Source: Candidatus Sericytochromatia bacterium (GTDB taxonomy: Bacteria; Cyanobacteriota; Sericytochromatia; UBA7694). From it: DNA of 64,000 nucleotides. The notes under the pieces are model-generated. The model did no database searches and was not told the DNA's origin. It saw only the letters and a program-made list of their open reading frames with translations. The stretch is from the NCBI GenBank assembly GCA_018780035.1, contig JADMKE010000003.1:82753-146752 (forward strand), read 5' to 3'. This document shows positions 38,465-64,000 of this stretch, piece after piece (positions within the stretch are counted from its first letter, which is position 1; every line of letters begins with the position of its first letter). The translations under genes were made by a program, and so were the position numbers.

Positions 38465-39443
38465 CCACACCTGTCACATTGTCTTTGGGCACAATTGTAA
38501 ACGTTGTTGAACTGGCAGTGCCTTCAGCTGAAGACACGGTGATCACACCCGTGGTGGCTCCCTGGGGAATCGTTACCGTCACGCTATTGGCTGTGGTTGC
38601 TGTGATTGTGGCTTGAGCTCCCCCTGAAAAAGTGACAGTGGCTGCACTGGTTTGGGGATTAAATCCGCTCACTGTCAGGGTCACAGACTCCGAGACACTG
38701 CCCTGAGCAACACTCAAGGCTGTCACTTGCACAGTCGTGCCTGCTGGCGTTCCACCACCACCGGCGGGAGGGGCTCCTCCGCCACCGCCACCGCCGCCGC
38801 CGCCACCACCGCCGCCTGAGGATGGCGCACTGATGACTACTTCGATCTCAGCTTTGACAGTGGGATCGGACTTGAGGCTAACCACCACTTTGTAGCTGCC
38901 CGAGGTGGTTTTTGAGCGAATGACACCTTTGTTATCCACGCTGATCAGGCTTGGCGAAAGCGACTCCCAATTAAATTCGTATTTGGTTAAATCCAAATTA
39001 TTGCCATTGAGATCTTGAAGCAAGAGCTGAATGGACTGTTCGCTGCCAAAGCCAGACAATTCGACCCGGCCCGGAATTGCCCGTAATTTTAATGATGGAA
39101 CCGTATCACTCACACCTTTGACAGGTGCCTCAGGGGGTGTTTTTTCGGGGATTGTTGCCACCGGTGGCAGGGCTGTCGTTTTACTCGCCCCTGCAGGGCC
39201 CGTACTTCCGCCATCTCCGATGCCCCGATCATTGGGCGTGGGTGAGGGGACAGGCACCCGCTGCTGCTCAAAATTGTCTTGAATATTGGGATTGTTGGCA
39301 TTGCGGTTGCGTTCACTGAGATTCACCAAACCGCTCAGTGGCGCGCCATAATTCAGCTGAACATCGCTGCAGCTCCCAAAGACAAGCAAGCTAAGCGTTA
39401 ATGCAGTAAAAAGGTGAAAGGGTTTTTTTATGTTACTCATCAA
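38451..39443 (-). CDS. Surface lipoprotein with Big_2 Ig-like domain, poly-Gly linker and C-terminal IPT/TIG domain
   Basis: 330 aa. Lipobox LVFGSC, a Big_2-like segment, a G15 run, and IPT/TIG at the C-terminus (VTLTVSGFNPQTSAATVTFSGG...). Its start overlaps the upstream gene stop by 4 nt. Confidence 0.65.
   Translation of the reverse strand: MMSNIKKPFHLFTALTLSLLVFGSCSDVQLNYGAPLSGLVNLSERNRNANNPNIQDNFEQQRVPVPSPTPNDRGIGDGGSTGPAGASKTTALPPVATIPEKTPPEAPVKGVSDTVPSLKLRAIPGRVELSGFGSEQSIQLLLQDLNGNNLDLTKYEFNWESLSPSLISVDNKGVIRSKTTSGSYKVVVSLKSDPTVKAEIEVVISAPSSGGGGGGGGGGGGGGAPPAGGGGTPAGTTVQVTALSVAQGSVSESVTLTVSGFNPQTSAATVTFSGGAQATITATTANSVTVTIPQGATTGVITVSSAEGTASSTTFTIVPKDNVTGVVIFQ
38751..38817. repeat. 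GC-rich simple sequence (CCN/GGN)n tract encoding the Gly15 linker
   Basis: ccaccaccaccggcgggaggggctcctccgccaccgccaccgccgccgccgccaccaccgccgcc, a candidate site for slipped-strand length variation. Confidence 0.6.
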
Positions 39444-42400: not shown

Positions 42401-43147
42401 CGGGTGATTGCCATAAATGACCTGATCAAGCAGGGCGTTTAATTGGGTCAGATTGAGGTTCTCAACCAGTGCCGTGACTTGTTCTGGGGTCATATTGCCA
42501 GTGACAGCGGGCACCCGGTTGATCAGGGCTTCGAGAATCGCGGCGGTGGCGGTGCTGCGCCAGGTAAAGGTCAAAACCACCTCATTGCTGTTTTCAGGTG
42601 ATGAATAAACCGCTTTGAGCAGGGCTCCGGGTATTTCAAGGTGATTGGCTGAATTGTCATAGCCCTGAACACTGACAATGCGATTTTTGCCCCTGGGCAC
42701 GGTCTGTATTCGCAAAGCCGTATTTTCGCCATTGGAACTCACTGCGACATATTGGTTGAGATTGTAAATCGGAGCCGTGAGATCCGAACCCGTGACCCAG
42801 GCCCGCAAATGGGATATTTTATCGAGTTCCAACTGTTGGGTGCGCAGGCCTGGTCTTTGAATAATCACTTTTAAACGCAGCTCATCGCCTTTACCGCTAT
42901 TTGTAATCTGGGCTTGAGCAGAATCAATCAGCGGAACCTGAGGCAGGGTTTGTTGGGGCAGGTGTGGGTGGGTCTCTGCTTTGTCTGGCTGAAGGGGATT
43001 GCGATTGCCTGCATGCAAGACAGCGGGTGTAGAATGGGTGCCAGAAGGCAAGCTGCTACACGAAACCATTAAAAGGGCCAAAGCAACTTTAGCGTACTTC
43101 AAGTGATTTCCCCCTCTTGCTGAAGGCGGGCAATAGCAGACAGGCAA
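39440..43147 (-). CDS. Large cell-surface protein: about seven IPT/TIG Ig-like domains plus a C-terminal six-bladed NHL-repeat beta-propeller
   Basis: 1235 aa. N-terminal signal/lipobox (LLMVSC). Repeated G[AT]TGPI[ST]VTT-type IPT/TIG modules. NHL repeats at the C-terminus (GNIYVADTSNHAIRKI, GNVYVADVNNYQIRKI, GTLYIADTSWGIRRI). Confidence 0.75.
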   Translation of the reverse strand: MPVCYCPPSARGGNHLKYAKVALALLMVSCSSLPSGTHSTPAVLHAGNRNPLQPDKAETHPHLPQQTLPQVPLIDSAQAQITNSGKGDELRLKVIIQRPGLRTQQLELDKISHLRAWVTGSDLTAPIYNLNQYVAVSSNGENTALRIQTVPRGKNRIVSVQGYDNSANHLEIPGALLKAVYSSPENSNEVVLTFTWRSTATAAILEALINRVPAVTGNMTPEQVTALVENLNLTQLNALLDQVIYGNHPVGGNTFALHPSRVNAEALAKALVDNNGQVPTLNQGDPPPGAWIKQMANLNVVVRTPNNVAFNSAIQLQITDPASAPISIAAGQDTGNLPQIIPGTWQAIAKIDGLNGGVSSRTNLTVDANGNVTLTEGTTNNPLVLPPVMKALSATQGASGSQITISGDGFNPAGGNVVKFGTVTATVELSTATSLVVKVPPGISGTLPIQVTNNGKLSNTANFTVDTRIVSLSSPGGKVGDTLSIQVSGFDATQNPTVVFSNGVTATINTALTTAGTLVVTVPAGASTGPISVTPQGGTALQSTNYAINTPVISAVTPDSASVGATVTLTGANLTGATGVTVNGLAVNNVTVVNDNTLTFTIPPGASTGPVQVTTPLGTGTSANNLTIPQQVVALSSPGGKPNDSVTITVSGFNPATSNPTVTFNGGTPATITGTTANTVTVTVPAGATTGPITVTPNGGNPLQSPTYTVSTPVISSFTPTAAIGNQVTLTGANFTGATQIQFNGVNAPTFTVNNDGTITVTVPAGATDGPISVTTPAGSGNSATQFQVLKPPTITNVANDPLQPTGPIVLTGTGYVTGSVVMIGTTVLNTNAYTINSSTQITINTPPVGNPLDTVTIFNPAGSAVSSLLYKDVINFVGNAALVTRTDINFAIENAHGINVDHNSNIYIASLSHKIYKFNQAGQNQWVSGDSTAGFRKDELFFPADKLKETTLANARFSGPEDLANDSFGNIYVADTSNHAIRKITTDGKVQVIARLPGPEGIEINKNNELFVTCTDPPNATTTVTNVFVAKIANLNTLPTLAETQLYDLNKTLTPNVQIIAGGAPAGAAGATPVSPIADARFLHLEGLGIDGDGNVYVADVNNYQIRKINFQTNQVTVFATLSYSFAPPNSDSLPWVEMHEIRVDPYGNVFVPATCCNFGFNSASKIYRITPSGQISRIAGTGSSGLAEGKPLTVATFSSPRGIDFAPDGTLYIADTSWGIRRIDRYQPLPVNN

Positions 43148-43324: not shown

Positions 43325-45076
43325 GTGCTCCCCAGACAGGGAACATTTGGCAAAAACCAACAAAGAAAGACAGTATCTGTTAAAATTATGTTAAACACTG
43401 TTGAAGAATGCAGAGACCTATTGAAGAGAGTTTTTCCCATGTCTGCCAAAGCTAAGCGGATTTTGATTTTTGACAACGACACTTCCCACCACAAACATCT
43501 TTTGCAATTACTTCCCGCGTCTGAGTGGGAATTGTCCATCGAACACGAACTGTATCAAGCCACCCAGCGCTTTAAAAATCGCCCCTTCGATTTTGTGATC
43601 TCCTGTTTGGACATGCCCGATGATGAAGGTGAAGAGTTCGCTTTTTGGGTGTGCGAAAATTATCCCAAGCGCAAAGTGATTTTGATTGGCTCTCCAGACG
43701 AAGATTTTTCCGATCAGGTCGATGAGCTGCGCCAGCATAAATCCGTTTTGGGGTTTATTCCCAAACCCGTGCCTGGATTGCGACTTTTGGGCCTTTTAGA
43801 CCAACAATCTCAGGGCCTTGAAGGGCAAGTTCAACGCATGAATTTGCTCGATCTGCTGCAAATGATGCGGATGAATAAACCCCAATGCCTGGTCTCTTTT
43901 AGCGATAAATTGACCCGGCAAGAGGGCATTCTCTATTTGCGCAGCGGAGAAATCATCCATGCAGAACTTTATGAAACCCACCCCAAAACCCTGGAACGCT
44001 ACCAAAAAGCAGAGGGGATAGAGGCCTTCAACCATATTGTGCAATTTAAAAATGGCGAGTTTCAAGAGAAAAACTGGACCGAACCTGCCCAAATCACCAT
44101 TCAATTGCCTTTTGACAGTCTCTCGATGAATGCCGCTCAGTTTATGGATGAAAGCGCTGGGCCAATTGATCCCTTTGCGACCGCCCAAGAGAATATCATA
44201 TTGAGAAATATTCTCTTGGTCGATACCGACCCCATGAGCAGGATGATCATTCAGCGTGCGCTTTTTGCCGAGGGCTTTAACTGTATTTCACTCAAAACGC
44301 CCCAAGAGGCCATGATGGCCATTGATGGCGATCCCATTGATCTGGTGATTACAGACACCCTGAGCCAGCACAGCTTTTTGCGTTGGTTGCAAAAACACTA
44401 TCCCCAATCCCCGGTGGTTGCGATTGTCAATGCCAGTGAAGAAGAATTGGAAGAAATTGAAAAGCTGGGACATGCCCGTTTGCTGGCCAAACCAATTGAC
44501 CTGCGCAAACTCAAACAATTATTGGCTGAGATCGGCCAGACGGGTTTTAAAGGCTTTCTCAGTCAGATTGGGGTTTTTGACTTCATTCAACTCAATCTCT
44601 CGGCCCTTGATCGCAAAAAGCTACATATCCGCGATTTGGCCACGAATATCGATGCCAAAGTGTATATCGACCGTGGACGTTTCGTTCACGCTATTTACAA
44701 AGAACTCGAAGGCCAAGAGGCTTTTTATAAAATCGTGGCAATTGAAAACGGTGATTTTTTCGAAGATCCTTCGTTTGATCCCCCCAAAGACACGCTCTCA
44801 GACATTATGCCCCACAAGCTGATGATTCAGGCCGCGCGCTTCTTGCCCGTTAAGACCACAGAAGCCCCCCCCGTTGCAGCACCGGCCTCAGGTGTGACCT
44901 CCCTCTTTGGGGACGATGAACCGCTTTCAATCAATCTGGGGCAAAACCCGCTGGCAGCGGGTGGCGTTTCTCCAGAAGGCGGTCTTTCCTCGCTTTTTGG
45001 TGACGAAGAAATCACCCTGAATCTGGGTGGAAGTTCAGACCAGGGCGGTATCACTTCACTCTTTGGCGATGATTAA
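43325..45076 (+). CDS. Multi-domain signalling protein: REC - DUF4388 - REC-like - DUF4388 with C-terminal SLFGD[DE]E repeats
   Basis: 583 aa. The likely true start is MSAKAKRILIFDND at 43439. REC-like phospho-acceptor region DFVISCLDMPDDEG. Two DUF4388-like segments (MNLLDLLQMMRMNKPQCLVSF ... GILYLRSGEIIHAEL, and FLSQIGVFDFIQLN ... KVYIDRGRFVHAIY). Three SLFGDD/EE repeats at the C-terminus. Confidence 0.6.
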   Translation: MLPRQGTFGKNQQRKTVSVKIMLNTVEECRDLLKRVFPMSAKAKRILIFDNDTSHHKHLLQLLPASEWELSIEHELYQATQRFKNRPFDFVISCLDMPDDEGEEFAFWVCENYPKRKVILIGSPDEDFSDQVDELRQHKSVLGFIPKPVPGLRLLGLLDQQSQGLEGQVQRMNLLDLLQMMRMNKPQCLVSFSDKLTRQEGILYLRSGEIIHAELYETHPKTLERYQKAEGIEAFNHIVQFKNGEFQEKNWTEPAQITIQLPFDSLSMNAAQFMDESAGPIDPFATAQENIILRNILLVDTDPMSRMIIQRALFAEGFNCISLKTPQEAMMAIDGDPIDLVITDTLSQHSFLRWLQKHYPQSPVVAIVNASEEELEEIEKLGHARLLAKPIDLRKLKQLLAEIGQTGFKGFLSQIGVFDFIQLNLSALDRKKLHIRDLATNIDAKVYIDRGRFVHAIYKELEGQEAFYKIVAIENGDFFEDPSFDPPKDTLSDIMPHKLMIQAARFLPVKTTEAPPVAAPASGVTSLFGDDEPLSINLGQNPLAAGGVSPEGGLSSLFGDEEITLNLGGSSDQGGITSLFGDD

Positions 45077-51646: not shown

Positions 51647-52867
51647 ATGGATATAGATATCGAGAATCTGAACCACGAAGAAGCCCTGAAATTTGTTGAA
51701 CGCTTTCAGGTATTATTGGAAATCAACAACAGCATTAACTCCTCAATGGAGTTGGATGTCCTGCTTCGCACCATTATTGACGTGGCCAAAATCGTGATGA
51801 ATGCCGAAGCCTCTTCGCTGGCGCTCTTGGACAAAAGCACCCAAGAACTGGTTTTTCACTTTGCCCAGGGCGAAGCGGGCAAAGTGGTTGAGAGTATGCG
51901 CATTCCCGTGGGAACAGGCATTGCTGGCCATGTAGCTGAAACGGGCCAGCCTTTGATTGTACCCGATGTGACTCAAGACGAGCGCTTTTACAAAGGCGTG
52001 GACGAAGAAAGCAAATTCCAAACCCGCTCGATTATCTGTGTGCCCATGTCCCGTTCGGGGGATCAGGTGATGGGTATTTTGCAGGTGCTCAATAAAATCG
52101 AAGGCACCTTCGACGAAACCGACCTGATTCTCTTTTCGTCTTTGGCCAATATTGCCGCGATCGCAATTGAGAACTCTCAGCTCTATACCTTGCTGCAACA
52201 AACCCTCGACAAGCTCAAAGAAGACAATACCCGCCTGAATATGATTCTCGGCAAGCTCGAACAATCCGAGGCCGAGGTCCGCGAAATGAAAACCCTGATG
52301 CAAGGAGACGACACAGGCGCCGTGCGCGGCAGCCTCTCGGTGATTATCCCACCCAATATTCTGCAAATGCTCGGCAACGACGCCAAAACAGGTTCAGTCA
52401 CAATCAACAGCAAACCCCAATCGGGCAAAATTTATCTGCAGCGGGGCGAGGTGCATTATGCCGAAACATCTGGCTCCCCGCCCTTTTTAACCGGCCCCAT
52501 GGCCGCTTATGAGATGATGGGCTGGACCGAAGGCACCTTTTCGTTTAACGAAAACGAAGAGCCCCCCGGCCGCACCATCCAGGTCTCCGTCATGCATCTG
52601 ATTATCGAAGGCATGCGCCGCAGCGACGAAACCAAAGTCATGTTGGAGATGTTCCCCGATGATTCGGTGGTGATTAAATTGGCAGAGGCCCCCCCCGAGA
52701 ATATCGATCCCCACGCAGAAGCCTGTTTCTGGGGCCTGACCACCGGCCAGACCTTGGGCGATGTGCGCCGCCGTGTGCCTGTGGACAGCCACACCTTCTA
52801 CAGTGCAGTCAAAGACTTCAGCGAAAACCGATTGATTCAAATCGCGCAGGTGGTTGAAGAAGCCTAA
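51647..52867 (+). CDS. GAF domain protein with C-terminal DUF4388-like domain
   Basis: 406 aa. GAF region LLRTIIDVAKIVMNAEASSLALLD ... IAGHVAETGQPLIVPDV ... ICVPM. C-terminal GSVTINSKPQSGKIYLQRGEVHYAE ... MMGWTEGTFSF. Confidence 0.6.
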   Translation: MDIDIENLNHEEALKFVERFQVLLEINNSINSSMELDVLLRTIIDVAKIVMNAEASSLALLDKSTQELVFHFAQGEAGKVVESMRIPVGTGIAGHVAETGQPLIVPDVTQDERFYKGVDEESKFQTRSIICVPMSRSGDQVMGILQVLNKIEGTFDETDLILFSSLANIAAIAIENSQLYTLLQQTLDKLKEDNTRLNMILGKLEQSEAEVREMKTLMQGDDTGAVRGSLSVIIPPNILQMLGNDAKTGSVTINSKPQSGKIYLQRGEVHYAETSGSPPFLTGPMAAYEMMGWTEGTFSFNENEEPPGRTIQVSVMHLIIEGMRRSDETKVMLEMFPDDSVVIKLAEAPPENIDPHAEACFWGLTTGQTLGDVRRRVPVDSHTFYSAVKDFSENRLIQIAQVVEEA

Positions 52868-52916: not shown

Positions 52917-53309
52917 ATGTATCAAATTGAACGTAAAGACTATGGCTATTATTTGACCTTTGGCGATCTGATCAAGGCCGATGAGATGAATCGATGGGTG
53001 TCTGAATCCAAACAGGAAATGCTGAGTGCCCCCTCCCAATTTGGGGTGTTTGTAGATATGCGTACTTTGGCACCCTTGCCTGAAGATGCTCAAGTGGCGA
53101 TGCAAGAAGGCCAAAAACTCTACAAATCCAAAGGTATGACGCGCTCCGTGGTGATTGTCAACAGCAAGATTACCAAAATGCAATTTATGCGCATAGCCAA
53201 AGAAACCGGGATTTATGAGTGGGAACGGTATATTGATGCCACCGCTGTCCCAAATTGGGAAGACGTGGGCGTGGCGTGGCTGACCGAGGCAACAGATCCT
53301 GACCTCTGA
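52917..53309 (+). CDS. Small hypothetical protein
   Basis: 130 aa. Good spacing after the upstream gene. No recognisable family (possibly STAS-like). Confidence 0.4.
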   Translation: MYQIERKDYGYYLTFGDLIKADEMNRWVSESKQEMLSAPSQFGVFVDMRTLAPLPEDAQVAMQEGQKLYKSKGMTRSVVIVNSKITKMQFMRIAKETGIYEWERYIDATAVPNWEDVGVAWLTEATDPDL

Positions 53310-53356: not shown

Positions 53357-55351
53357 GTGCCACTCTCGCTCCGTCTTGCAAAGGATCACTTTGCCAGAGG
53401 GGATGCTTTGATGGGAATGCAGCAATCGCAAACCGCTCAAATCGGGTTCTGCTGTCTGGTTTTTTGCCTCTTGGGCTGTGAACCCCGGTCGCAATCCCCG
53501 CTCTCGCTCTCTTCCCCCTCGCCGCTCATTCCCACACCTGATTCAATGTCTTCCTCGCCACATGCCCGCCTCAATCTCAGCCTGGAACCCATTGCCGCAG
53601 CCTTTTATGAGCTGCGCTGGAATACCCAACCCGAGGCCTACAACTACCGCCTCTGGCTCGATGACAAGCCTTTTAAAGACAATTTGGTCTTGCCGCGCGA
53701 GGTCTTGGATTTAACCGGGTATGCCCTGGGCAGCCACACCCTCAAACTGGAGAGTATCAACGCCAGTAAACAAGTGACTGCGGTGGGAGAACTCGCTTTT
53801 GAGATCCAGGCTTCGATGCCAAGCCCAACCGCGTACCCCACCCCCAGCTCTCATCCCAACGCCTATCGGCCGGTATTGTTGCCCACCCCGACGCCCCGGC
53901 CACAGGTCAGCCCCACCCCTGTGGTGGTGGTTTTGCCGAGTCCTTATCAAACGCCTGCTTGTGATCTCGCTTATTATTGTGACTTCGAAAGAACCACCTT
54001 CAATGGCAAGGTTTTTGATGATAACTACTTACCTTTGAAGGGGGTAACTGTTATAGCCAAGTCTCTCAGCAGCAATGTGCCCTTTAATGCTGAAACAGTA
54101 ACGACTGACGGGACTTATACTTTCAACAGAGCACCTTCTGGCGTTCAGGTTGAAATCACCGCATCCAAAGCGGGCTTTGCTACCCGCAAACGCGTCGAGG
54201 TGCTCAGGTCCAACAAACAGGGAGATCCCAATGCCAACCGCTTTGACTTTGGCACCGATGGGGGCGCAGCGACCTTCTCTGCCGTTTACAACGCGCTGAG
54301 CGACAAACCCGAAGTGGTGATGGTCACTCCGGCCCGCAATGGCTCCGGTGTAGCGTTCAACACCAGCTTCGTGCTGAAATTCTCTGAACCCATGGTTAAA
54401 CAAACCGTGGAAAACAGTTTGATGATCTCCGCATTTAACAGGCGAAAAATCACAGTGGATGCCGACAATCGGCGTGTGGCAGGGGGGACCGATACGGTGA
54501 TTGGCAACGGAACGATTTTCACTAATTTCTTGCCGGGCAATAGCACACCAATTTGGGATGCAACGGCCTTTGAGAGCAGTTGGAACAGCGATGCCACCGA
54601 AATCACCCTGCGCTTCAAAGAGGGCAAAAACCTACCCAGCGACAGAGACAGCAATTTGGTGCCCGATTACAACGTGTCCTTTCATGGTTTGGATATCAAC
54701 AAACGTTTTATTCAAGACGCCAGTGGGGTGATCCGCAACGATAAATTTTTTAAACTGACCGACGGGGATTTTGAAGAGTCTTACAAATTCTCGATCAAAA
54801 GCGACGAAGTCAAACCCACGCTGACGCAGATGACTCCCGATCCCCAGTCGCCACACGGGGGCGGGTTTATTCTGCACTACAGCGAGCCCATGATACTCGA
54901 AACCCTGGGCGTGAACATTGCGGGCGGTATGAGCGACACCCCCACAGCTTTTATACATGCCCCCGCTGGATATCCAGGGGCTGTGTATAGCACAGCTGCC
55001 AAAGCGGCTGAAAACTACCATTTGCTCGTCAAAGACGCGCTGGGGCAAACCCGGTTTGAAGGCAGTTGGGCCCAACTCGGTGGGCGGGTGGAGTATCTCA
55101 GCCGCGATGCCAGCCGCAAAAGTGTCAGGCTGACATTGCCCCCTTTTGCCGGAACAGCAACAGATCCCGACGTTCAAACCCGTTTGACTCAGCTTCTAAG
55201 CCGTGGCCACACATTGAGCGAAGGGGTGGTGCCGAGCTTGTTTGAAATTGGAGAGCGTCTCACCTTTCGGGTCGAAGCAGGGGTGATGGACCCCGCAGGC
55301 AATACTGTGGATAGTGCCCGCAATAACGTGGGCCTGACCTTAAATGGGTGA
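53357..55351 (+). CDS. Paralog A (1 of 5): lipoprotein with FN3-like + CarboxypepD_reg-like + Big_5 (SbsA) Ig-like domains and an uncharacterised conserved C-terminal domain
   Basis: 664 aa from the ORF track. The more likely start is ATG 53411 (MGMQQSQ...), which has an AGAGGGGA RBS. Lipobox LLGC. Motifs YNYRLWLDDKPF, TFNGKVFDDNYLPLKGVTVIAKS, LSDKPEVVMVTPARNGSGV ... LKFSEPM, HFKLTDGDFEESYKF. Confidence 0.7.
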   Translation: MPLSLRLAKDHFARGDALMGMQQSQTAQIGFCCLVFCLLGCEPRSQSPLSLSSPSPLIPTPDSMSSSPHARLNLSLEPIAAAFYELRWNTQPEAYNYRLWLDDKPFKDNLVLPREVLDLTGYALGSHTLKLESINASKQVTAVGELAFEIQASMPSPTAYPTPSSHPNAYRPVLLPTPTPRPQVSPTPVVVVLPSPYQTPACDLAYYCDFERTTFNGKVFDDNYLPLKGVTVIAKSLSSNVPFNAETVTTDGTYTFNRAPSGVQVEITASKAGFATRKRVEVLRSNKQGDPNANRFDFGTDGGAATFSAVYNALSDKPEVVMVTPARNGSGVAFNTSFVLKFSEPMVKQTVENSLMISAFNRRKITVDADNRRVAGGTDTVIGNGTIFTNFLPGNSTPIWDATAFESSWNSDATEITLRFKEGKNLPSDRDSNLVPDYNVSFHGLDINKRFIQDASGVIRNDKFFKLTDGDFEESYKFSIKSDEVKPTLTQMTPDPQSPHGGGFILHYSEPMILETLGVNIAGGMSDTPTAFIHAPAGYPGAVYSTAAKAAENYHLLVKDALGQTRFEGSWAQLGGRVEYLSRDASRKSVRLTLPPFAGTATDPDVQTRLTQLLSRGHTLSEGVVPSLFEIGERLTFRVEAGVMDPAGNTVDSARNNVGLTLNG

Positions 55352-55505
55352 TCGTGCATTAAAAGACATCTTTTACAGCCATTTTCACAGACAGGGCTCA
55401 GCTCTGTCGCTTGGGGGTATTTTGCTTTTGGTGCTGGGGGGAGTCAGCGCCTGCAATTCAACTCCTTTGAGCCCCGCAGCCAGTCCCAGTCCGATGCAAA
55501 CACTC
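54521..55505 (+). repeat. Direct repeat copy 1 (~1 kb; near-identical to 58573-59575)
   Basis: A long tract identical to copy 2 apart from a few substitutions and one 9-bp indel. It spans the 3' half of paralog A and the 5' end of paralog B. Confidence 0.85.
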
Positions 55506-57350
55506 GCGTCGGCTATGCCTTCTCTCATCGCTACATCCGCTCCAAATGCGAGCCCATCTCCGTTGTCGACAACTCAGCCCAGTGCTGATTCCTTTTATAA
55601 ACCAACCAATGGTAATTTGATGATTCAAAAGTCAGAAATTCAGCAAGGCAAAGTCTACGATGGCAATGGCCAACTACTTGATGATGTGAACATTCAAATC
55701 CGCTCATTAAATCCATCGGTCCCTTTCCATGTTAAAACTAAAGCAGTCAGGGGAGAGTATTCTTTTGACAAGGCACCGATGGGAATCTCACTCGAAATTA
55801 AAGCTGAAAAACAGGGCTATGCCAGCCGCAGAAAGGTAGAATTAATTAGCTGGTATTCACCCAGCAATGTAGGGAAATTTGATTTTGGTACAGAATTTCC
55901 TTTGCTTTGGAGCAATGGATCTGCTTTTTACTTTCGTTTAAATGATCAACCCGAAGTCATTCAAGTTACCCCTTCCCGCAATGGCTCTGGTGTATCTCCC
56001 AAAACGGATTTTACCTTGCTTTTTTCTGAACCGATGGACCGACAGTCAGTGGAAGATAATTTTACAATTCGCAGTTTCAATTCTCGGCTGCTCACAGTTG
56101 ATGGCGGCCCGCTGCCTTACGGTCGCATCGATGTTCCAATCCCTCACACTGTCAAAGGCAATGGCATCATTGCCAGCAATTATCAAACAGGCCAAGGCAC
56201 CCCGATCTATGAACGCTCAGCTTTTGATATCAGCTGGAATGCCGACAATACCCAAGTGACCTTTTCCTTTAAAGATGGCAAAGCCCTGCCCACTGATAGA
56301 GACCAGGATTCAGTCCCTGATTACAATATCTCCTTTAAAAACTTTAGAGATGAAAACCGCACAATCAGAGACAAATCAGGCATTGAGCGCCAAGAGAAAC
56401 ACTTCAAACTGACCGATGGCGACTTTGAAGAATCGTATAAATTCTCAATCTTGCCCGATTTAATTTCACCCACCCTTGAATCCGCGAAGTGGACAGGGGT
56501 AACACCCCAGACAGCCTCCTTATTACTCCAATACAGCGAGCCGATGATGCTCAAGACCCACAGCCTGAAAATCGCAGGCGGTATGAAAGATAACCCAGCT
56601 TCTTGTAAACAGGCCCCAGCCGGGTATCCCGATGCACAAAGCTGCATTTCAGCCCGCGCGTCCCAAAATTATTCAGTTAAAGTCACAGGGGCCAATGGTA
56701 TCCCTCGCTTTGAAGGGACTTTGTCTCAATTGGGGGGCAAAGCCGAATATGACAGCCAAGACCCCACACAAAAAACAGTCAAGCTCTCATTGGCTCCTTA
56801 CCTTGGCCTAAACCGAACCCATTATTATGCAGCAGATCAGATTCTACTCACAGATTCAGGCCGTTATCACACGGGCAATTTTCAGGACAACTTCAGCTTT
56901 TTATTGGACAAAATCGACGGAACACAAACCAAGGTGGAAGTCAGTTTGAGTGCCAATTTAAGCTCAGGAGAAAGTCTCAGCCAAGATTTGATGGTTAAAC
57001 TGAATCAGAAGCTCGGTGAAATAGGCAGCTCAGCCCGATTTACCAGTACTTTTATCGCGGATCCCGGCTTTCCTCCCGGTTTAAATGCACCGGGCCGAAT
57101 CAGTCTCAAACTTTTGGATGCCCAATCTGATCATCTGGGGTTTTCTGCCCTGCCCACGCCAGCAGCCAATAGCAGTGAAGATGTCTTGCCCAATTTTCAA
57201 GTGGGGGGCCGTTCTCTGCAAACAGGCATGTTTTTGTTTGACTTTCAAGCTGGAGACCAACTTGAAATTACAGCTGGAGCAAGTATCGTGGATCCTGCAG
57301 GCAACCCCCTTGCCGCAAATTCTCCGTCTCTGAGTATTGATGTGCCATGA
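55344..57350 (+). CDS. Paralog B (2 of 5): lipoprotein of the same family (no FN3-like segment)
   Basis: 668 aa. Start overlaps the paralog A stop by 8 nt. Lipobox GVSAC. Motifs LNDQPEVIQVTPSRNGSGV ... FSEPMDRQSVEDNFTIRSF, AFDISWNADNTQVTF, EKHFKLTDGDFEESYKF, LLQYSEPMMLKTHSLKIAGGM, CKQAPAGYPDA. Confidence 0.7.
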   Translation: MGDRALKDIFYSHFHRQGSALSLGGILLLVLGGVSACNSTPLSPAASPSPMQTLASAMPSLIATSAPNASPSPLSTTQPSADSFYKPTNGNLMIQKSEIQQGKVYDGNGQLLDDVNIQIRSLNPSVPFHVKTKAVRGEYSFDKAPMGISLEIKAEKQGYASRRKVELISWYSPSNVGKFDFGTEFPLLWSNGSAFYFRLNDQPEVIQVTPSRNGSGVSPKTDFTLLFSEPMDRQSVEDNFTIRSFNSRLLTVDGGPLPYGRIDVPIPHTVKGNGIIASNYQTGQGTPIYERSAFDISWNADNTQVTFSFKDGKALPTDRDQDSVPDYNISFKNFRDENRTIRDKSGIERQEKHFKLTDGDFEESYKFSILPDLISPTLESAKWTGVTPQTASLLLQYSEPMMLKTHSLKIAGGMKDNPASCKQAPAGYPDAQSCISARASQNYSVKVTGANGIPRFEGTLSQLGGKAEYDSQDPTQKTVKLSLAPYLGLNRTHYYAADQILLTDSGRYHTGNFQDNFSFLLDKIDGTQTKVEVSLSANLSSGESLSQDLMVKLNQKLGEIGSSARFTSTFIADPGFPPGLNAPGRISLKLLDAQSDHLGFSALPTPAANSSEDVLPNFQVGGRSLQTGMFLFDFQAGDQLEITAGASIVDPAGNPLAANSPSLSIDVP

Positions 57351-57459
57351 ACTGGCTAAATAACTCGATTTTTTTCTGAACACGACAACAATCGCCTGAT
57401 CATACCCAGATTTTTGCCAATATGGGAACATCCACTGCCATAGCAGCGTCTAGAGAAAA

Positions 57460-59403
57460 ATGGCTGCGCTGAAGGGGGAAAGTTTGATGAGAATCAGGGC
57501 CTTTTTACTTACTTTGCTCAGTGTCAGTGTTGGTCTGGTGGGCTGTGAAACCCGTTCTCAAAAACCACTTGCATTCCCCTCGCCGACGATGTCCATGCCT
57601 GTTTCAACGCTTTTGGCCCCTCTCGTTCACATCAATCTCAGTATGCTCCCAATTAAAGCCGCTTTTTTTGAGTTGCGCTGGAATTCACAACCCGAGGCCG
57701 ATCGTTATCGCCTCTGGCTCGATAGCAAGCCCTTTAAAGACAATTTGGTTTTGCCGCGCGAGATATTGGATTTAACCGGCTATGCCCTGGGCAGCCACAC
57801 CCTTAAATTGGAAAGTATCAACGCCAGAGGTCAGGTGACTGCGGTGGGAGAACTCAGATTTGAGCTCCAAGCCCCTGGCCCCAGTCCGACAGTTTACCCT
57901 ACATCCAGTGCCGTTCCCAAAGCCTCTCCGGCTGTGGGGCCAACCTCACCACCCCAGCCGAAGGTCAGTCCCACACCTGTGGTGGTGGTTTTGCCAAGCC
58001 CCATACCCAATGATATCTGTGATGCTTGTTTCTCTGAAAAAACAACTTTTAATGGTTATGTTTATGATGATCAATTTATGCCCATGCCTGGTGTTACGAT
58101 CCAGGTCAAATCATTGATCAGCAATATCCAATTTGATATGCAAAAAACGACATCATCAAATGGCCAATTTTACTTTTCCAATGCACCAAGTGGCGTTCAC
58201 ATTGAAATAATTGCTTACAAAGCAGGATTTACTCCCCGCAAACGTGTTGAGTTTCTACATTCCAACAAAGAAGACAATCCCATTATAAATTGGTATAACT
58301 TTGGTACTGATGGTAGAGAACCCTTCAATTCTACTGGATATGATGCACTGAGCGACAAACCCGAAGTCACCACAATTACTCCATCTCGAAATAGCTCCGG
58401 TGTAGCGTTCAACACCAGCTTTGTGCTGAAATTCTCTGAACCCATGGCAAAACAAACCGTGGAAAAAAGTTTTATGATCTCCGCTTTTAACAGGCGGAAA
58501 CTCACGGTGGATGCCGACAATTTGCGTACTGCTGGCGGAGCCAATACTGTCATTGGTACTGGAAAGATCGCCACTAATTTCTTGCCGGGCAATAGCACAC
58601 CAATTTGGGATGCAACAGCCTTTGAGAGCAGTTGGAACAGCGATGCCACCGAAATCACCCTGCGCTTCAAAGAGGGCAAAAACCTACCCAGCGACAGAGA
58701 CAGCAATTTGGTGCCCGATTACAACGTGTCCTTTCATGGTTTGGATATCAACAAACGTTTTATTCAAGACGCCAGTGGGGTGATCCGCAACGATAAATTT
58801 TTTAAACTGACCGACGGGGATTTTGAAGAGTCTTACAAATTCTCGATCAAAAGCGACGAAGTCAAACCCACGCTGACGCAGATGACTCCCGATCCCCAGT
58901 CGCCACACGGGGGCGGGTTTATTCTGCACTACAGCGAGCCCATGATACTCGAAACCCTGGGCGTGAACATTGCGGGCGGTATGAGCGACACCCCCACAGC
59001 TTTTATACATGCCCCCGCTGGATATCCAGGGGCTGTGTATAGCACAGCTGCCAAAGCGGCTGAAAACTACCATTTGCTCGTCAAAGACGCGCTGGGGCAA
59101 ACCCGGTTTGAAGGCAGTTGGGCCCAACTCGGTGGGCGGGTGGAGTATCTCAGCCGCGATGCCAGCCGCAAAAGTGTCAGGCTGACTTTGCCCCCTTTTG
59201 CCTCGGCCGCAACAGATCCCGACGTTCAAACCCGTTTGACTCAGCTTTTAAGCCGTGGCCACACATTGACCGAAGGGGTGGTGCCGAGCTTGTTTGAAAT
59301 TGGAGAGCGTCTCACTTTTCGGGTCGAAGCAGATGTGATGGACCCCGCAGGCAATACTGTGGATAGTGCCCGCAACAACGTGGTCCTAACTTTAAATGGG
59401 TGA
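57460..59403 (+). CDS. Paralog A' (3 of 5): duplicate of paralog A; the C-terminal ~270 aa are essentially identical
   Basis: 647 aa from the ORF track. The likely start is ATG 57487 (MRIRAFLL...), with RBS AGGGGGA 8 nt upstream. Lipobox LVGC. FN3-like YRLWLDSKPF. The C-terminal half is nucleotide-identical to 54521-55350. Confidence 0.7.
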   Translation: MAALKGESLMRIRAFLLTLLSVSVGLVGCETRSQKPLAFPSPTMSMPVSTLLAPLVHINLSMLPIKAAFFELRWNSQPEADRYRLWLDSKPFKDNLVLPREILDLTGYALGSHTLKLESINARGQVTAVGELRFELQAPGPSPTVYPTSSAVPKASPAVGPTSPPQPKVSPTPVVVVLPSPIPNDICDACFSEKTTFNGYVYDDQFMPMPGVTIQVKSLISNIQFDMQKTTSSNGQFYFSNAPSGVHIEIIAYKAGFTPRKRVEFLHSNKEDNPIINWYNFGTDGREPFNSTGYDALSDKPEVTTITPSRNSSGVAFNTSFVLKFSEPMAKQTVEKSFMISAFNRRKLTVDADNLRTAGGANTVIGTGKIATNFLPGNSTPIWDATAFESSWNSDATEITLRFKEGKNLPSDRDSNLVPDYNVSFHGLDINKRFIQDASGVIRNDKFFKLTDGDFEESYKFSIKSDEVKPTLTQMTPDPQSPHGGGFILHYSEPMILETLGVNIAGGMSDTPTAFIHAPAGYPGAVYSTAAKAAENYHLLVKDALGQTRFEGSWAQLGGRVEYLSRDASRKSVRLTLPPFASAATDPDVQTRLTQLLSRGHTLTEGVVPSLFEIGERLTFRVEADVMDPAGNTVDSARNNVVLTLNG

Positions 59404-59575
59404 TCGTGCATTGAAAGACATCTTTTACAGCCATTACAGCCATTTTCACAGACAGCGCTCAGCTCTGTCGCTTGGGGGTATTTTGCTTTTGGGGCTGGGG
59501 GGAGTCAGCGGCTGCAATTCAGCTCCTTTGAGCCCCGCAGCCAGTCCCAGTCCGATGCAAACACTCCTCCCTTCG
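58573..59575 (+). repeat. Direct repeat copy 2 (~1 kb; near-identical to 54521-55505)
   Basis: Offset 4052 bp from copy 1. Contains the YSH 9-bp insertion (cattacagc) relative to copy 1. Confidence 0.85.
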
Positions 59576-61030
59576 ACTAAGCCAACAATGGCAGTGCAAC
59601 CCAATGCCACTCCTTCTCCCACATTGGTTCCAATAGCTACTCCCTATGCAAGCCCTACACCGAATCCTGTCGAACCCTCTCCCCTTATGCCCAGTGCCTC
59701 ACCGATTTTGTATAGCACTGAAGGGATAGAAAAATCTGCTTTCTCTGGACAGATTTTTGATGATACACACAAACCACTGAATGATGTTCAGATCCGTCTT
59801 CGCTCTCTAAATGAGCTGGTCCCTTTTGGTGCCGAGACGGTGGCTTTAAACGGTCAATATGTTTTCAACAACATCCCTTCAGGAATCCTGGTTGAAATCA
59901 CAGCCTCCAAACCCGGTTTTGCCACGCGCAGACGGATGGAAGTTGCAAAATCGAGCTTTAGAGGGCCAGATGTCAATAGTCGCTACGACTTTGGTACCAA
60001 TGGTGGTTCAGCAATGTACTCTGCTGCTTATAACGCTCTGACCGACAAACCCGAAGTTATCCGAGTGACTCCCGCCCGCAATGGAGCGGGGATTTCACCG
60101 AAAACAGATTTCAACTTGTTCTTTTCAGAACCCATGGATCGCAGATCTGTCGAAGAGAGTTTCACTGTTCGCAGTTTTAAAAACAACAAATTATCTGTGG
60201 ATAATACCATGAATAAATTCCCTTCTGAACAAGGATTTAAGTATACTTTGAACGGGAAAGATGCAAATACCCATTTTGGATCGCCTCATTTTTACGAAAT
60301 AAGCAACGGCACCCCCATTTACGATTCATCCGCCTTTAATATCACCTGGAATGCGGATGATACCCAAGTGACCTTTCAATTCAAACCAGGTTTGTCCTTG
60401 CCGACAGATAAAACACCTGAACTCGCCCCCCATTACCAAGTGGCATTTAAACCTTTCACAAATAAAAACCTCACCCTGCGCGATAAAACAGGCGTTGAGC
60501 GCCAGGAGAAACATTTTAAATTAACCGATGGCGATTTTGAGGAAGCATACCAGTTTCAAGTCAAAGAAGATCTGCAAGCGCCCAGCCTGCAAGCGGCCCG
60601 GTGGGCTGGATTTTATGGGCAAATGCCCACACTATTGCTCCAATACAGCGAGCCGATGTTGCTTAAAACTTACAGTTTAAATATTGCCGGGGGAATGGCC
60701 GATGAGCCGCCCTCTTGCAAACAGGCCCCGGCAGGATTTCCGGGGGCGAAAGCCTGTACTGCCAGCAAAGCAGCTGAAAATTATCAGGTGAAAGTCAGAG
60801 CCCCCAGTGGCTCACTCAGCTATCAAGGGACTTGGGCAAATTTGGGAGGAGAAGCCAGTTATGCGTCTTGGGATGCCAGTTTTAGAACAATAGTTTTGAG
60901 TACACAAACACCCCAACCCACTTTTATCTCAGGAGCCCAAGTTGAAATCACCGCCAATCCTGAAGTTGTTGAACCAGCGGGCAATCCAATTTCAAACAGC
61001 CAAACGCCCTTGACTGTATTGATACCATGA
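59396..61030 (+). CDS. Paralog B' (4 of 5): duplicate-type of paralog B (shared MGDRALKDIFYSH start), diverged after the signal peptide
   Basis: 544 aa. Overlaps the A' stop by 8 nt. Lipobox VSGC. Motifs LTDKPEVIRVTPARNGAGI, AFNITWNADDTQVTF, EKHFKLTDGDFEEAYQF, CKQAPAGFPGA. Confidence 0.7.
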   Translation: MGDRALKDIFYSHYSHFHRQRSALSLGGILLLGLGGVSGCNSAPLSPAASPSPMQTLLPSTKPTMAVQPNATPSPTLVPIATPYASPTPNPVEPSPLMPSASPILYSTEGIEKSAFSGQIFDDTHKPLNDVQIRLRSLNELVPFGAETVALNGQYVFNNIPSGILVEITASKPGFATRRRMEVAKSSFRGPDVNSRYDFGTNGGSAMYSAAYNALTDKPEVIRVTPARNGAGISPKTDFNLFFSEPMDRRSVEESFTVRSFKNNKLSVDNTMNKFPSEQGFKYTLNGKDANTHFGSPHFYEISNGTPIYDSSAFNITWNADDTQVTFQFKPGLSLPTDKTPELAPHYQVAFKPFTNKNLTLRDKTGVERQEKHFKLTDGDFEEAYQFQVKEDLQAPSLQAARWAGFYGQMPTLLLQYSEPMLLKTYSLNIAGGMADEPPSCKQAPAGFPGAKACTASKAAENYQVKVRAPSGSLSYQGTWANLGGEASYASWDASFRTIVLSTQTPQPTFISGAQVEITANPEVVEPAGNPISNSQTPLTVLIP

Positions 61031-62832
61031 GCCAAGAAAATCACAGGACAGTCTCAAGTCAGTTTTTGCAGGCTCTGATTCTGGCCGGTCTTTCTGCCTG
61101 TGAACCTCCGGCCATGCATCCCTCAGAACCCCCTGCCAGCCAGAACAGTCAAGCAACGGCTACTTCGGCTCCCATGGCATTCGAAAACAGAACTGCAAGT
61201 ATTGTGGTTGAAAGAGAGGAAGGCAATCGCTATAAACTAAGCTGGCCAACGATTCCAGGGGCCGCTAATTACAAGCTCTTTCTCGATGGGGAATTGCTGA
61301 AAGATCAATTAAAAACCAGCCAATATCAAATGGATATTTCTCAATTGAGTTGGGGGCTCCATAAATTGGGGTATGAATCTTTCGATCGGAATCATCGACT
61401 CATAGGCTATTTGGCCCAAGAGTGGGATCTGCGCCCGCTATTACCAGAACCCATTAAGTCTATAAAACCTTGCCCAGAGAGCAAAATGATTGATCTTTGG
61501 ACATATCAGGACTGTTACGATGGAATTACTTATACAGGTTCAATAGAAAAAAATATCATTTTTGGAAAGATCTATTCTGATTCTCAACGTTTATTAGCTG
61601 GAACAAACGTTCTTGTTCGGTTAATTAATAGTCGTTTTCAGTTTTCTAAAGAGACCATATCGACTGATGGGATTTTTCGTTTAGTCGATATACCAGTAGG
61701 TTATCAAGTTGAAATAATTGCTTCAAAGACAGGTTATACAACCAGAAGAAGAATAGAAATTGTAAAATCACCTGGCAAAAGTGATCCTAATGCAAATCGA
61801 TATGACTTTGGTGCAGATCTGGCAACAGCCAGCGGTTTCTCTGCCTCATACAATACACTCAGCGACAAACCCGAAGTAACCATGGCCCTGCCCAGTCGCA
61901 GTCAAAGAAATGTGGCTCCCAATAACGCTTTTGAGCTGACTTTTTCTGAGCCCATGGATCATCAGGGGGTTGAAAACAATTTTGCGATTCGCAGTTTTGT
62001 GTCGGGAAAAATCTCAGTCGATGCTCAGTCTGGAGGGGATACCTTTAATGGCACAGTCCCAATCCAGAGAGAATACCAGCCAGACGCATTCAAGACCGGT
62101 GAAACACTTCCGAGATACGGCAATCTCGCTCAATACCAAACAGGCACGCCCATCTTCGACAGCTCTGCCTTTGATATCTCCTGGAATGCCGACGATACGC
62201 AGGTTACATTTGCCTTTAAACCCGGCAAAGCCCTGCCCACAGACAAAGATCTCGCCCGCTTGCCAATCTATACCCTGGCTTTCGATTCATTTGGCAATCA
62301 ACAGCGCGATATTCGTGACAAAAGCGGCGTGGCCCGCAGTGAGAAACACTTTAAGCTCACCGATGGCGATTTTGAAGAGGCGCTGGCCTTTGAGGTGCAG
62401 GCCGACACCACCCCACCGCGTTTGGAGAACGTGGCACAATTAGAATTGCCCATGCGTGCTTTGGCCTTTGCTTTGACATTTAGCGAACCGATGCTGCTCA
62501 AAACCCACAGCCTGGATATCGCAGGCGGCATGGCTGATACGCTTGAATCTTGCAAACAGGCTCCAGCGGCTTATCCAGGTGCAAAAGTCTGCACCGCTTC
62601 ACGGGCCGGGCAAAACTATACCCTCACTGTCAAAGCCGCCGATGGGCGCATCAAATTCCAGGGCCCTTGGTCTCTGTTGGGTGGAGAAGCCCATTACGAT
62701 GCAGGTGATCCCAGCTTCACACGGGTGATCTTAAGTGCCTCAACTCTGCCTTTTTTGCAAGCAACTGATGATCACTACCACGTTCAGGCCCTTTCCCCGC
62801 TTTCGGACCCAGCGGGCAATTTTCTGGATTGA
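61027..62832 (+). CDS. Paralog A'' (5 of 5): the same family, with a divergent FN3-like N-terminal domain
   Basis: 601 aa. ATGA overlap with the preceding gene. Lipobox LSAC. Motifs YKLSWPTIPGAANYKLFLDG, LSDKPEVTMALPSRSQ, AFDISWNADDTQVTF, EKHFKLTDGDFEEALAF, CKQAPAAYPGA. Confidence 0.7.
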   Translation: MSQENHRTVSSQFLQALILAGLSACEPPAMHPSEPPASQNSQATATSAPMAFENRTASIVVEREEGNRYKLSWPTIPGAANYKLFLDGELLKDQLKTSQYQMDISQLSWGLHKLGYESFDRNHRLIGYLAQEWDLRPLLPEPIKSIKPCPESKMIDLWTYQDCYDGITYTGSIEKNIIFGKIYSDSQRLLAGTNVLVRLINSRFQFSKETISTDGIFRLVDIPVGYQVEIIASKTGYTTRRRIEIVKSPGKSDPNANRYDFGADLATASGFSASYNTLSDKPEVTMALPSRSQRNVAPNNAFELTFSEPMDHQGVENNFAIRSFVSGKISVDAQSGGDTFNGTVPIQREYQPDAFKTGETLPRYGNLAQYQTGTPIFDSSAFDISWNADDTQVTFAFKPGKALPTDKDLARLPIYTLAFDSFGNQQRDIRDKSGVARSEKHFKLTDGDFEEALAFEVQADTTPPRLENVAQLELPMRALAFALTFSEPMLLKTHSLDIAGGMADTLESCKQAPAAYPGAKVCTASRAGQNYTLTVKAADGRIKFQGPWSLLGGEAHYDAGDPSFTRVILSASTLPFLQATDDHYHVQALSPLSDPAGNFLD

Positions 62833-62887: not shown

Positions 62888-64000
62888 ATGAACCGCAAAT
62901 CCATCTCTTTCAAAGCCCCGTTTAAAGCCAGTTTGAGTTTGAGCCTGACCCTCTTGCTGCTCCTGAGCAGCTGTTATGCCAACCAAGATAGCTCACAGAT
63001 CGCCGACAAGAGCCAAACAGCGCCCCCCAAAGTCGACCAACAAAACACCGAAGAAACCGATGACGAAAAAAAACTGATGAACCTTCAGGCCCCCGCTCCC
63101 CCCCGCAAACTCAAATCCGAAGCCCTGGCCAATAAACCCGTCACCACCGGCATGGTAACGGGTGGCAAGGTGAACGAAAGCACAGTTCTGAGACAGGCCC
63201 CCAAAGAGCAGATCCCCCAAGATCAGACGCCAACAGATAAAGAATTTAACACCGAAGGCTACGACAAAATTGCAGAGAATCCCTTTCTTGAGGCCTTAAA
63301 AAACCCACTTTCGACCTTTTCAATTGATGTAGATACCGCTGCTTACAGCAATGTGCGGCGCTTTATTCAACAGGGCAATTTGCCGCCCCAAGATGCCGTC
63401 AGAATCGAAGAGATGATCAATTATTTTGAATATAACTATCCCGATCCCCAGAGTCAGCACCCTTTTTCGCTGGTCACTGAAATCTCCGACTGCCCCTGGA
63501 ATACCAAACACAAACTTTTACATGTGGGCCTGCAGGCCAAACGCCTGAATCTCAAACAGACACCCCCCAATAATCTGGTCTTTTTGTTGGATGTCTCAGG
63601 TTCGATGGAAGACGATAACAAACTTCCCCTGCTGAAAAAATCCCTGCGCCTGCTGATCGACGAATTGCGGGAACAAGACAGCGTCTCGATCGTGGTCTAC
63701 GCGGGGGCTGCGGGCCAGGTTCTGCCCCCCACCAGTGGTGCCAACAAAGCCAAGATCATCGACGCGCTTGAGAATTTACAGGCCGGGGGCTCGACCGCAG
63801 GCTCAGAAGGAATTCAATTGGCCTACGAATTGGCACGCAAAAACTTCAAACAAAATGGCAATAACCGCGTCATTTTGGCCACCGATGGCGATTTTAACGT
63901 CGGTCCCTCCAGCGATGGCGAACTCGTGCGCATGATCGAAGAAAAACGCAAAGGCGGGGTCTTTTTAACCGTCTTGGGCTTTGGCATGGGCAATTACAAA
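62888..64000 (+). CDS. YfbK-like von Willebrand factor type A domain protein with signal peptide (3' end outside the window)
   Basis: No stop codon within the window. GGAGGA RBS at 62874-62879. Signal peptide; FSIDVDTAAYSNVRRFIQQGNLPPQDAVRIEEMINYF (YfbK N-domain-like); vWA MIDAS start VFLLDVSGSM ... SIVVYAG. Confidence 0.7.
   Translation, partial: MNRKSISFKAPFKASLSLSLTLLLLLSSCYANQDSSQIADKSQTAPPKVDQQNTEETDDEKKLMNLQAPAPPRKLKSEALANKPVTTGMVTGGKVNESTVLRQAPKEQIPQDQTPTDKEFNTEGYDKIAENPFLEALKNPLSTFSIDVDTAAYSNVRRFIQQGNLPPQDAVRIEEMINYFEYNYPDPQSQHPFSLVTEISDCPWNTKHKLLHVGLQAKRLNLKQTPPNNLVFLLDVSGSMEDDNKLPLLKKSLRLLIDELREQDSVSIVVYAGAAGQVLPPTSGANKAKIIDALENLQAGGSTAGSEGIQLAYELARKNFKQNGNNRVILATDGDFNVGPSSDGELVRMIEEKRKGGVFLTVLGFGMGNYK

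Follow-up and report, generated by a model that had tools for sequence, protein, structure and literature searches.

Five tandem Ig-like domain lipoproteins next to a YfbK-type vWA gene in a Candidatus Sericytochromatia genome

What kind of protein is made by a run of paralogous lipoprotein genes whose shared C-terminal region, ~300 amino acids (aa) long, had been described as a domain of no assignable family? The question is raised by a 64,000-nucleotide (nt) stretch of DNA from a Candidatus Sericytochromatia bacterium (GenBank assembly GCA_018780035.1, contig JADMKE010000003.1, positions 82,753 to 146,752 of the forward strand; hereafter the window), in which five such genes stand in a row ahead of a gene for a von Willebrand factor type A (vWA) domain lipoprotein. 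Sericytochromatia are uncultured, non-photosynthetic relatives of cyanobacteria. As judged from sequence profiles and structure models, the ~300-aa region is the rest of a Big_5 immunoglobulin (Ig)-like domain (Ig#1) followed by a second, divergent Big_5-type Ig-like domain (Ig#2).

The C-terminal region as two Ig-like domains

The five genes, named A or B by domain content, are arranged as follows:

53357..55351 (+): paralogue A, an open reading frame (ORF) of 664 aa from GTG 53357
55344..57350 (+): paralogue B, 668 aa
57460..59403 (+): paralogue A', 647 aa from ATG 57460
59396..61030 (+): paralogue B', 544 aa, the paralogue chosen for the full-length model
61027..62832 (+): paralogue A'', 601 aa

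The preliminary description of the window had recognized five consecutive plus-strand paralogous lipoprotein genes, and this holds: the proteins can be aligned with one another over ~440 aa at 39–77% identity, and each matches the hidden Markov model (HMM) of the C-terminal module at E-values of 1e-133 to 1e-151, far beyond chance, supporting a co-oriented, closely packed set that arose by duplication. The probable start of A is ATG 53417, giving a protein of 644 aa, the same length as database entry P0025, while A' offers an alternative ATG at 57487 (MRIRAFLL...). B' is 100% identical to P0001, a Candidatus Sericytochromatia protein from a metagenome-assembled genome (MAG) that is encoded on a 406-kb contig and annotated 'Ig-like domain-containing protein'.

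In Pfam searches all five paralogues exceed the gathering cutoff of Big_5 (PF13205; 25.2–31.3 against 23.6 bits), confirming the Big_5 domain proposed earlier, with the match lying at the start of Ig#1 and covering only the first ~55 of the 105 profile positions; Big_5 is likewise matched by 19 of 19 trimmed C-terminal modules (best E 3e-14). The AlphaFold2 (AF2) model of full-length B', built on a 56-sequence alignment, has a mean predicted local distance difference test score (pLDDT) of 81.8 that exceeds 90 from about residue 110, and consists of a disordered tether (residues 1–103), a seven-strand sandwich (113–183) and two further β-sandwiches (221–389 and 398–542). The C-terminal 337 residues modeled alone reach a pLDDT of 85.3. 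Searched with Foldseek, this C-terminal model retrieves first the two-Ig stalk of LdtMt2/LdtMt5 and then Fab and scFv (single-chain variable fragment) pairs, and the full-length model retrieves tandem Ig/FN3 (fibronectin type III) arrays; the fold is an Ig-like β-sandwich as in the SbsA/SbsC domains.

The sequences point the same way. The motif order of Ig#1 (KPEV...FSEPMD, W-N-x-D-D-T, Y-x-V-x-F, D-K-[ST]-G, F-x-[VI]) follows the Big_5 layout except for a hairpin inserted into it, EKHFKLTDGDFEE, while Ig#2 opens with a second ...SEPM, closes with [DE]PAGN and in the window copies carries an IAGGM...CKQAPAGYPGA..C loop. Comparison of Ig#1 with Ig#2 by hhalign gives a probability of 85% over 30 start columns, corresponding to an internal repeat of KPEV...FSEPM. 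In distant members of the family the isolated last domain matches Big_5 positions 1–96 of 105 with 25.4, 18.3 and 18.0 bits, the first of these above the cutoff, and the family profile also retrieves giant proteins with 9–22 Big_5 repeats, through profile positions ~10–55 only. Taken together, the models, the Foldseek matches, the Big_5 match of distant members, the motif repeat and the profile links to multi-Big_5 proteins argue for two Ig-like domains. Two results weigh on the other side: the Foldseek TM-scores are low (0.2–0.33), so that the resemblance is at the level of fold only, and the Ig#2 domains of the window itself reach no Pfam threshold.

The reading put forward in the preliminary description, that the C-terminal ~300 aa constitute a novel domain family with its own function, could draw on the window paralogues having no Pfam, NCBIfam or PDB match past the first ~55 residues of Big_5 (no meaningful match came from NCBIfam for any of them, and the family profile, full length or C-terminal only, found no match among PDB chains) and on the signature FKLTDGD, which was found only in Sericytochromatia genomes and in one 1.6-kb contig binned as Bacteroidota. 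Against it stand the confident models with their two Ig-like sandwiches, the homologous last domain of distant members above the Big_5 threshold, and the link from the profile to multi-Big_5 proteins. We regard a new domain as largely refuted here and give it hardly any credence.

Ahead of the two Ig-like domains the general order is signal peptide, tether, an optional FN3-like unit and a CarboxypepD_reg-like sandwich. B' is laid out as follows:

59396..59515 (+): signal peptide and lipobox (Cys40), by lipobox regular expression
59516..59725 (+): Pro/Ser/Thr-rich disordered tether, residues 41–110 (pLDDT <50 up to residue 103)
59726..59965 (+): CarboxypepD_reg-like β-sandwich, residues 111–190 (Pfam below the curated cutoff, and model)
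60038..60571 (+): Ig#1, the Big_5 domain (Pfam and model)
60572..61027 (+): Ig#2, the divergent Big_5-type domain (model, Foldseek and Pfam match of a homologue)

Paralogue A runs from linker through the FN3-like unit, a second Pro/Ser/Thr-rich linker and the CarboxypepD_reg-like sandwich to Ig#1 and Ig#2; B lacks the FN3-like unit and A'' has one. Under the expression [LVI][ASTVI][GAS]C, applied to the first 60 residues, the lipoboxes of B (VSAC), A' (LVGC), B' (VSGC) and A'' (LSAC) are canonical and that of A (LLGC) is near-canonical, being off-consensus at position −2; we infer that all five are exported, lipid-anchored proteins. The Pro/Ser/Thr-rich linkers reported earlier are borne out: such sequence follows the lipobox in all five as a predicted flexible tether of 40–100 aa, making up 41–53% of the tether residues in the B types, and in B' residues 1–103 are predicted to be disordered. 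The CarboxypepD_reg-like domain stands in part. It is seen in four of the five paralogues (PF13620; 28.9, 18.0, 23.9 and 25.8 bits, E 1e-6 to 4e-3), each time below the gathering cutoff of 32.3 bits, and Pfam found no such match in A''; with the seven-strand sandwich of the model the assignment is best worded as '-like'. Pfam, NCBIfam and PDB sequence searches detected no catalytic or other domain in the paralogues.

The extra unit of the A types, ~85 aa long with the pattern L.W...A..Y.L.L, occupies these positions:

53564..53815 (+): A-type unit in A
57625..57876 (+): A-type unit in A'
61195..61440 (+): A-type unit in A''

It is conserved, and some relatives have two copies. The earlier label 'FN3-like' found no backing in searches: Pfam gave no fn3 match at E-values up to 10, the best PDB profile matches were Fn3-like proteins at a non-significant E of 0.6–0.7, and a secondary HMM match of the unit to Ig#2 was not significant (independent E-value 8). 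The W...A..Y.L pattern is compatible with a β-sandwich, and 'FN3-like' may be retained as a plausible guess.

Conservation within the C-terminal module is concentrated in a few elements. The motifs that had been listed as invariant are indeed conserved, but only their cores (FKLTDGDFEE, SEPM.L.T....IAGGM, APA.[YF]P.A and WN.D.T) are invariant among the five paralogues. A low-complexity artefact was rejected as their source, the motifs lying in confidently folded strands and hairpins and being under purifying selection. The most conserved stretch among the 56 sequences is EKHFKLTDGD (mean column conservation 0.89), and in the models the near-invariant EKHFKLTDGDFEE (B' residues 371–383) forms an acidic β-hairpin just ahead of the last strand of Ig#1. 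In the Ig#2 loop a pair of cysteines (B' Cys441/Cys454) is present as a pair in 22 of the 56 sequences and absent as a pair from the other 34, with no sequence having one alone; this all-or-none pattern indicates a disulfide and an extracytoplasmic location. Variation is equally localized. Ig#1 has a variable loop at B' residues ~261–306 (conservation 0.23 over ~271–300), and Ig#2 has an insertion hot-spot at B' residues 501–510, where 23 of the 56 homologues have inserts of up to 336 aa. In the window it is paralogue B that has an insert at this site (~125–140 aa; 56700–57200), which has no family match.

The same fold invites comparison with characterized Ig-like systems. The mycobacterial L,D-transpeptidases LdtMt2/LdtMt5 (PDB 4hu2, 4z7a; Ig-like stalk domains A and B) resemble the paralogues in being lipoproteins with two tandem Ig-like domains, and differ in having a YkuD catalytic domain that the paralogues lack; identity is ~10% at TM-scores within the range given above. 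In SbsC, the Geobacillus S-layer protein (PDB 4uj6, 2ra1), a coiled-coil or secondary cell wall polymer-binding N-terminal domain is found that the paralogues do not have. The latter are instead N-terminally lipid-anchored through a Pro/Ser/Thr-rich tether and have only two Big_5 units, with an extra acidic hairpin in Ig#1 and a disulfide loop and insertion site in Ig#2. Bacterial α2-macroglobulin MG domains belong to proteins with a thioester and bait region, neither of which is present here. CopC (PF04234) has a free N-terminal His as copper ligand, which is not available where the domain is internal, as in the paralogues; CopC-like copper binding was rejected (best E 0.065, in 2 of 19 sequences; no ligand geometry).

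One could take the fold to mean that the paralogues are true S-layer subunits, which would self-assemble into a paracrystalline lattice and be held by the N-terminal lipid and long tether. Big_5 was defined on the SbsA-type S-layer Ig domains, the Ig core is conserved across the paralogues, and NCBIfam gave a weak match to the Kustd1514 anammox S-layer family (E 0.0013). That match, at 16.2 bits, is far below its cutoff of 1400, however, and the fold scores nearly as well against CopC, α2-macroglobulin and L,D-transpeptidase domains, which makes it uninformative on a lattice. Pfam found no SLH, CWB2 or other S-layer anchoring domain, and 4–9 diverged paralogues per locus do not fit the common pattern of a single S-layer gene, or a few, expressed abundantly. 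With no S-layer anchoring or lattice domain found, the earlier term 'S-layer-like' reduces to generic fold resemblance, and we consider S-layer subunits quite unlikely.

Organization and evolution of the array

Three of the junctions in the array overlap: A|B and A'|B' by 8 nt each (ATGGGTGA in both), and B'|A'' by 4 nt (ATGA). Four overlaps had been counted before; the other two junctions are gaps, of 109 nt at B|A' and of 55 nt between A'' and the vWA gene. The stoichiometric co-expression that had been read from them goes too far, given that start/stop codon overlaps are frequent in operons and that one internal junction has the 109-nt gap. The stop of B also lies within an ATGA (57347–57379), whose ATG opens a 10-codon ORF only (MNWLNNSIFF); this may be the relic of a formerly coupled junction, or chance. 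Scans for promoters (18 found, 10.3 expected from shuffled sequence) and terminators (17 and 14.3) were near the shuffle expectation, with nothing convincing at the gene boundaries. The locus is a same-strand gene cluster and probably an operon, a reading that, with these scans uninformative, is drawn from gene spacing alone. In the public database the entry for A'' (P0041, 'hypothetical protein IV090_02055', NCBI; on the same 406-kb contig as P0001) spans only its last 316 aa; since the ORF stays open over 601 aa, encodes a lipobox and is matched by orthologues of full length, this annotation probably starts too late.

Where else is the array found? Every named homologue is from a Sericytochromatia or Blackallbacteria MAG, except for one 2.3-kb contig labelled Roseimicrobium. 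When the GTDB species genomes were scanned with the signature peptide, 12 loci turned up, distributed over five Sericytochromatia/Blackallbacteria MAGs, together with the 1.6-kb contig binned as Bacteroidota, which is probably mis-binned. An exhaustive profile search gave 129 clusters (50% identity) at E <1e-30, most of them spanning the whole two-domain module; among ten remote members examined, the sole one with a source name was again from Sericytochromatia. By these searches the family appears to be confined to Sericytochromatia. The conserved site of the array has upstream a pyruvate:ferredoxin oxidoreductase (PFOR) gene, a dihydroorotate (DHO) dehydrogenase-like gene, a HerA-like ATPase gene and a GAF-DUF4388 gene, and downstream the YfbK-type vWA gene. 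Copy number varies among related loci:

L001 (JGI metagenome contig): 9 family copies, vWA gene directly downstream
L002/L006 (Blackallbacteria MAG mt_P12): 4 family copies, vWA gene directly downstream
L008: at least 3 family copies, vWA gene directly downstream
L007: at least 5 family copies, contig ending before the vWA position
L010: at least 1 family copy, locus beginning within the gene, vWA gene separated by a 1398-aa gene

In a neighbour-joining tree A groups with L001_1 and L007_1, B with L001_2, B' with L001_5 and L002_2, and A'' with L008_3. Because each of these window paralogues groups with orthologues elsewhere, the paralogues predate these species and the arrays differ by gain and loss. 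Within the window a second process has left its trace in two near-identical tracts of ~1 kb:

54540..55500 (+): copy 1, running from the 3' part of A across the A|B overlap into the 5' end of B
58590..59560 (+): copy 2, running from the 3' part of A' across the A'|B' overlap into the 5' end of B'

The tracts are 93–100% identical in DNA when compared in 100-nt bins, against 50–70% in their flanks, a pattern that points to gene conversion or to a partial duplication of very recent date. The array seems to evolve through the gain and loss of genes (related genomes have 4, 5 or 9 copies) together with gene conversion. Against orthologues, the ratio of nonsynonymous to synonymous substitution rates (dN/dS) is 0.11–0.5 in the folded domains and 0.3–1.45 in the linkers; the five genes are real and under constraint. 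Among the domains of a single gene pair dS varies several-fold, a sign of mosaic histories.

Tandem duplicated genes with variable loops and inserts, each encoding a lipid anchor, a flexible linker and tandem β-sandwiches, could also specify ligand-capture lipoproteins for nutrient uptake, every paralogue having its own specificity for a glycan, protein or particle. The tandem SusE/SusF-type surface lipoproteins of Bacteroidota would be comparable, and CarboxypepD_reg-like domains (PF13620) are known from carbohydrate-binding contexts. Neither a transporter nor a glycoside hydrolase nor a TonB-dependent receptor is present in the conserved neighborhood, however, and Pfam detected no carbohydrate-binding module family; we judge nutrient capture very unlikely.

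No paper on this lipoprotein family came up in a literature search that covered lipoproteins and S-layers of Sericytochromatia as well as YfbK. The component domain types and the annotation 'Ig-like domain-containing protein' were already known; what appear to be undescribed are the architecture of the family, its signature of hairpin, disulfide loop and insertion site, its restriction to Sericytochromatia and the variable tandem array beside a YfbK-type vWA gene.

Several other genes of the window may be recorded. Between the GAF-DUF4388 gene and paralogue A there is a 130-aa ORF (52917–53309, +) with no Pfam match, which has no counterpart at the syntenic site of L001 and L002, the gap there being only 134 nt long. 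The GAF-DUF4388 gene itself, the conserved upstream neighbor of the array in both of these loci, is one of two genes for DUF4388 (PatA_N) proteins in the window (43325–45076 and 51647–52867, +), one protein having receiver domains and the other a GAF domain. A 1235-aa protein with three IPT/TIG domains and NHL repeats, predicted to be extracytoplasmic and β-rich, is encoded at 39440–43147 (−).

The YfbK-type vWA neighbor

The gene that follows the array was correctly described before as YfbK-like:

62888..64000 (+): YfbK-type vWA lipoprotein, first 371 codons in the window, the gene running off its end

It encodes a lipobox (LSSC), a Pro-rich linker and the domains vWF_A (PF12450; 146.6 bits, E 2e-43) and VWA (PF00092; 61.4 bits, E 2e-16), with an intact metal ion-dependent adhesion site (MIDAS) motif (DVSGS, GGSTAG, ATDGD). 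The window ends before the part that in the full-length orthologue of L001 matches YfbK_C (PF12034) with 249 bits. The protein is thereby a member of the YfbK-type vWA lipoproteins (PF12450, PF00092 and PF12034), a group separate from the five paralogues.

The synteny survey proposed in the preliminary description bears out the association: a YfbK-type vWA gene directly follows the array in the window, L001, L002/L006 and L008, and in L010 it lies 4.3 kb downstream. The gene between it and the last family member in L010 (1324–5550; MAG CA_2019_TPBF_205) is the 1398-aa gene listed above. Fusions are also found among the homologues, P0052-54 having the order CarboxypepD_reg, Ig#1, VWA and P0042-45 having tetratricopeptide (TPR) repeats followed by the family module, while at L011 (6360–10996) a CarboxypepD_reg+VWA gene overlaps a TPR+module gene. 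These fusions and the L011 pair lend some independent support to a functional connection between array and vWA protein; the link itself is suggested by adjacency and domain fusions only. Two considerations count against it. The distant members in L003, L016, L017, L013 and L015 have no YfbK-type vWA neighbor, and the adjacency is shared by close relatives with the same flanks, so that it may reflect shared ancestry rather than function.

Recurrence of vWA and TPR proteins with the family module (P0042-45, P0052-54, L011) is a feature shared with the Bat vWA-TPR operons of Bacteroides and Leptospira. The vWA protein here is of YfbK type, however, not BatA or BatB (the BatA model NF047508 scores 23.6 bits against a cutoff of 380), and a Bat operon was rejected on vWA subtype and gene content, the cluster having no TPR or BatD gene and no BatA-E order. 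The only BatD-like gene (27895–28824, −) lies ~25 kb upstream of the array, where it overlaps a T2SSE-type secretion ATPase gene (28788–30515, −).

The paralogues could also be spacer or scaffold lipoproteins of the periplasm and not surface proteins, ones that set the distance of a partner such as the vWA protein from the membrane or bridge to the wall or outer membrane, in the manner of the Ig-like stalks of mycobacterial L,D-transpeptidases or of bacterial α2-macroglobulin. Their tethers are long and Pro-rich, and membrane-tethered proteins that combine a proline-rich linker with a vWA domain have been proposed as a class of periplasmic force transducers, E. coli YfbK being termed a periplasmic protein in the same work (PMC12204202). 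The paralogues lack an effector domain of their own, however, and multiple copies with variable inserts are a feature seen more typically in binding proteins that are exposed. We think this arrangement unlikely.

A proposed role in the cell envelope

The reading that we consider the best supported, and rather probable, is that the five paralogues are non-enzymatic, lipid-tethered extracytoplasmic binding or scaffold proteins that work with the vWA lipoprotein. With no catalytic domain found, the non-enzymatic envelope or surface role suggested earlier is upheld as a reasonable one. The proteins would be exported and lipid-anchored, and would form elongated binding or scaffold elements of the envelope that either stand on the cell surface or reach across the periplasm. 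Their conserved Ig core would serve for docking or assembly in all of them, possibly with the neighboring vWA protein as partner, and the variable loops and inserts would confer paralogue-specific binding. The MIDAS site of the vWA protein would take an acidic ligand residue, and the invariant hairpin might supply one; such docking of the acidic hairpin onto the MIDAS is speculation.

A more ambitious version of binding/scaffold proteins working with the vWA lipoprotein, which we put forward as doubtful at best, is that array and vWA protein make up a Sericytochromatia-specific surface apparatus. In it the Ig-like paralogues would dock via FKLTDGDFEE on the MIDAS or on each other, forming a heteromeric coat or adhesion layer. 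Gain and loss of genes, along with gene conversion, would diversify their exposed loops and inserts, for example under pressure from phages or grazers. If true, this would be a lipoprotein-based alternative to the classical S-layer in a sister lineage of cyanobacteria.

The main value of this check is negative: the C-terminal modules are ordinary Ig-like (Big_5) modules, and the locus is no pointer to a new kind of system. We suggest that the proteins be annotated 'Big_5/Ig-like domain lipoprotein, Sericytochromatia family'. To our knowledge almost nothing is known of the cell envelope of Sericytochromatia, and a family that is apparently theirs only, with several copies per genome in a fast-changing array, can reasonably be put forward as a candidate major component of the envelope or cell surface, the array being also a possible marker locus for strain-level variation.

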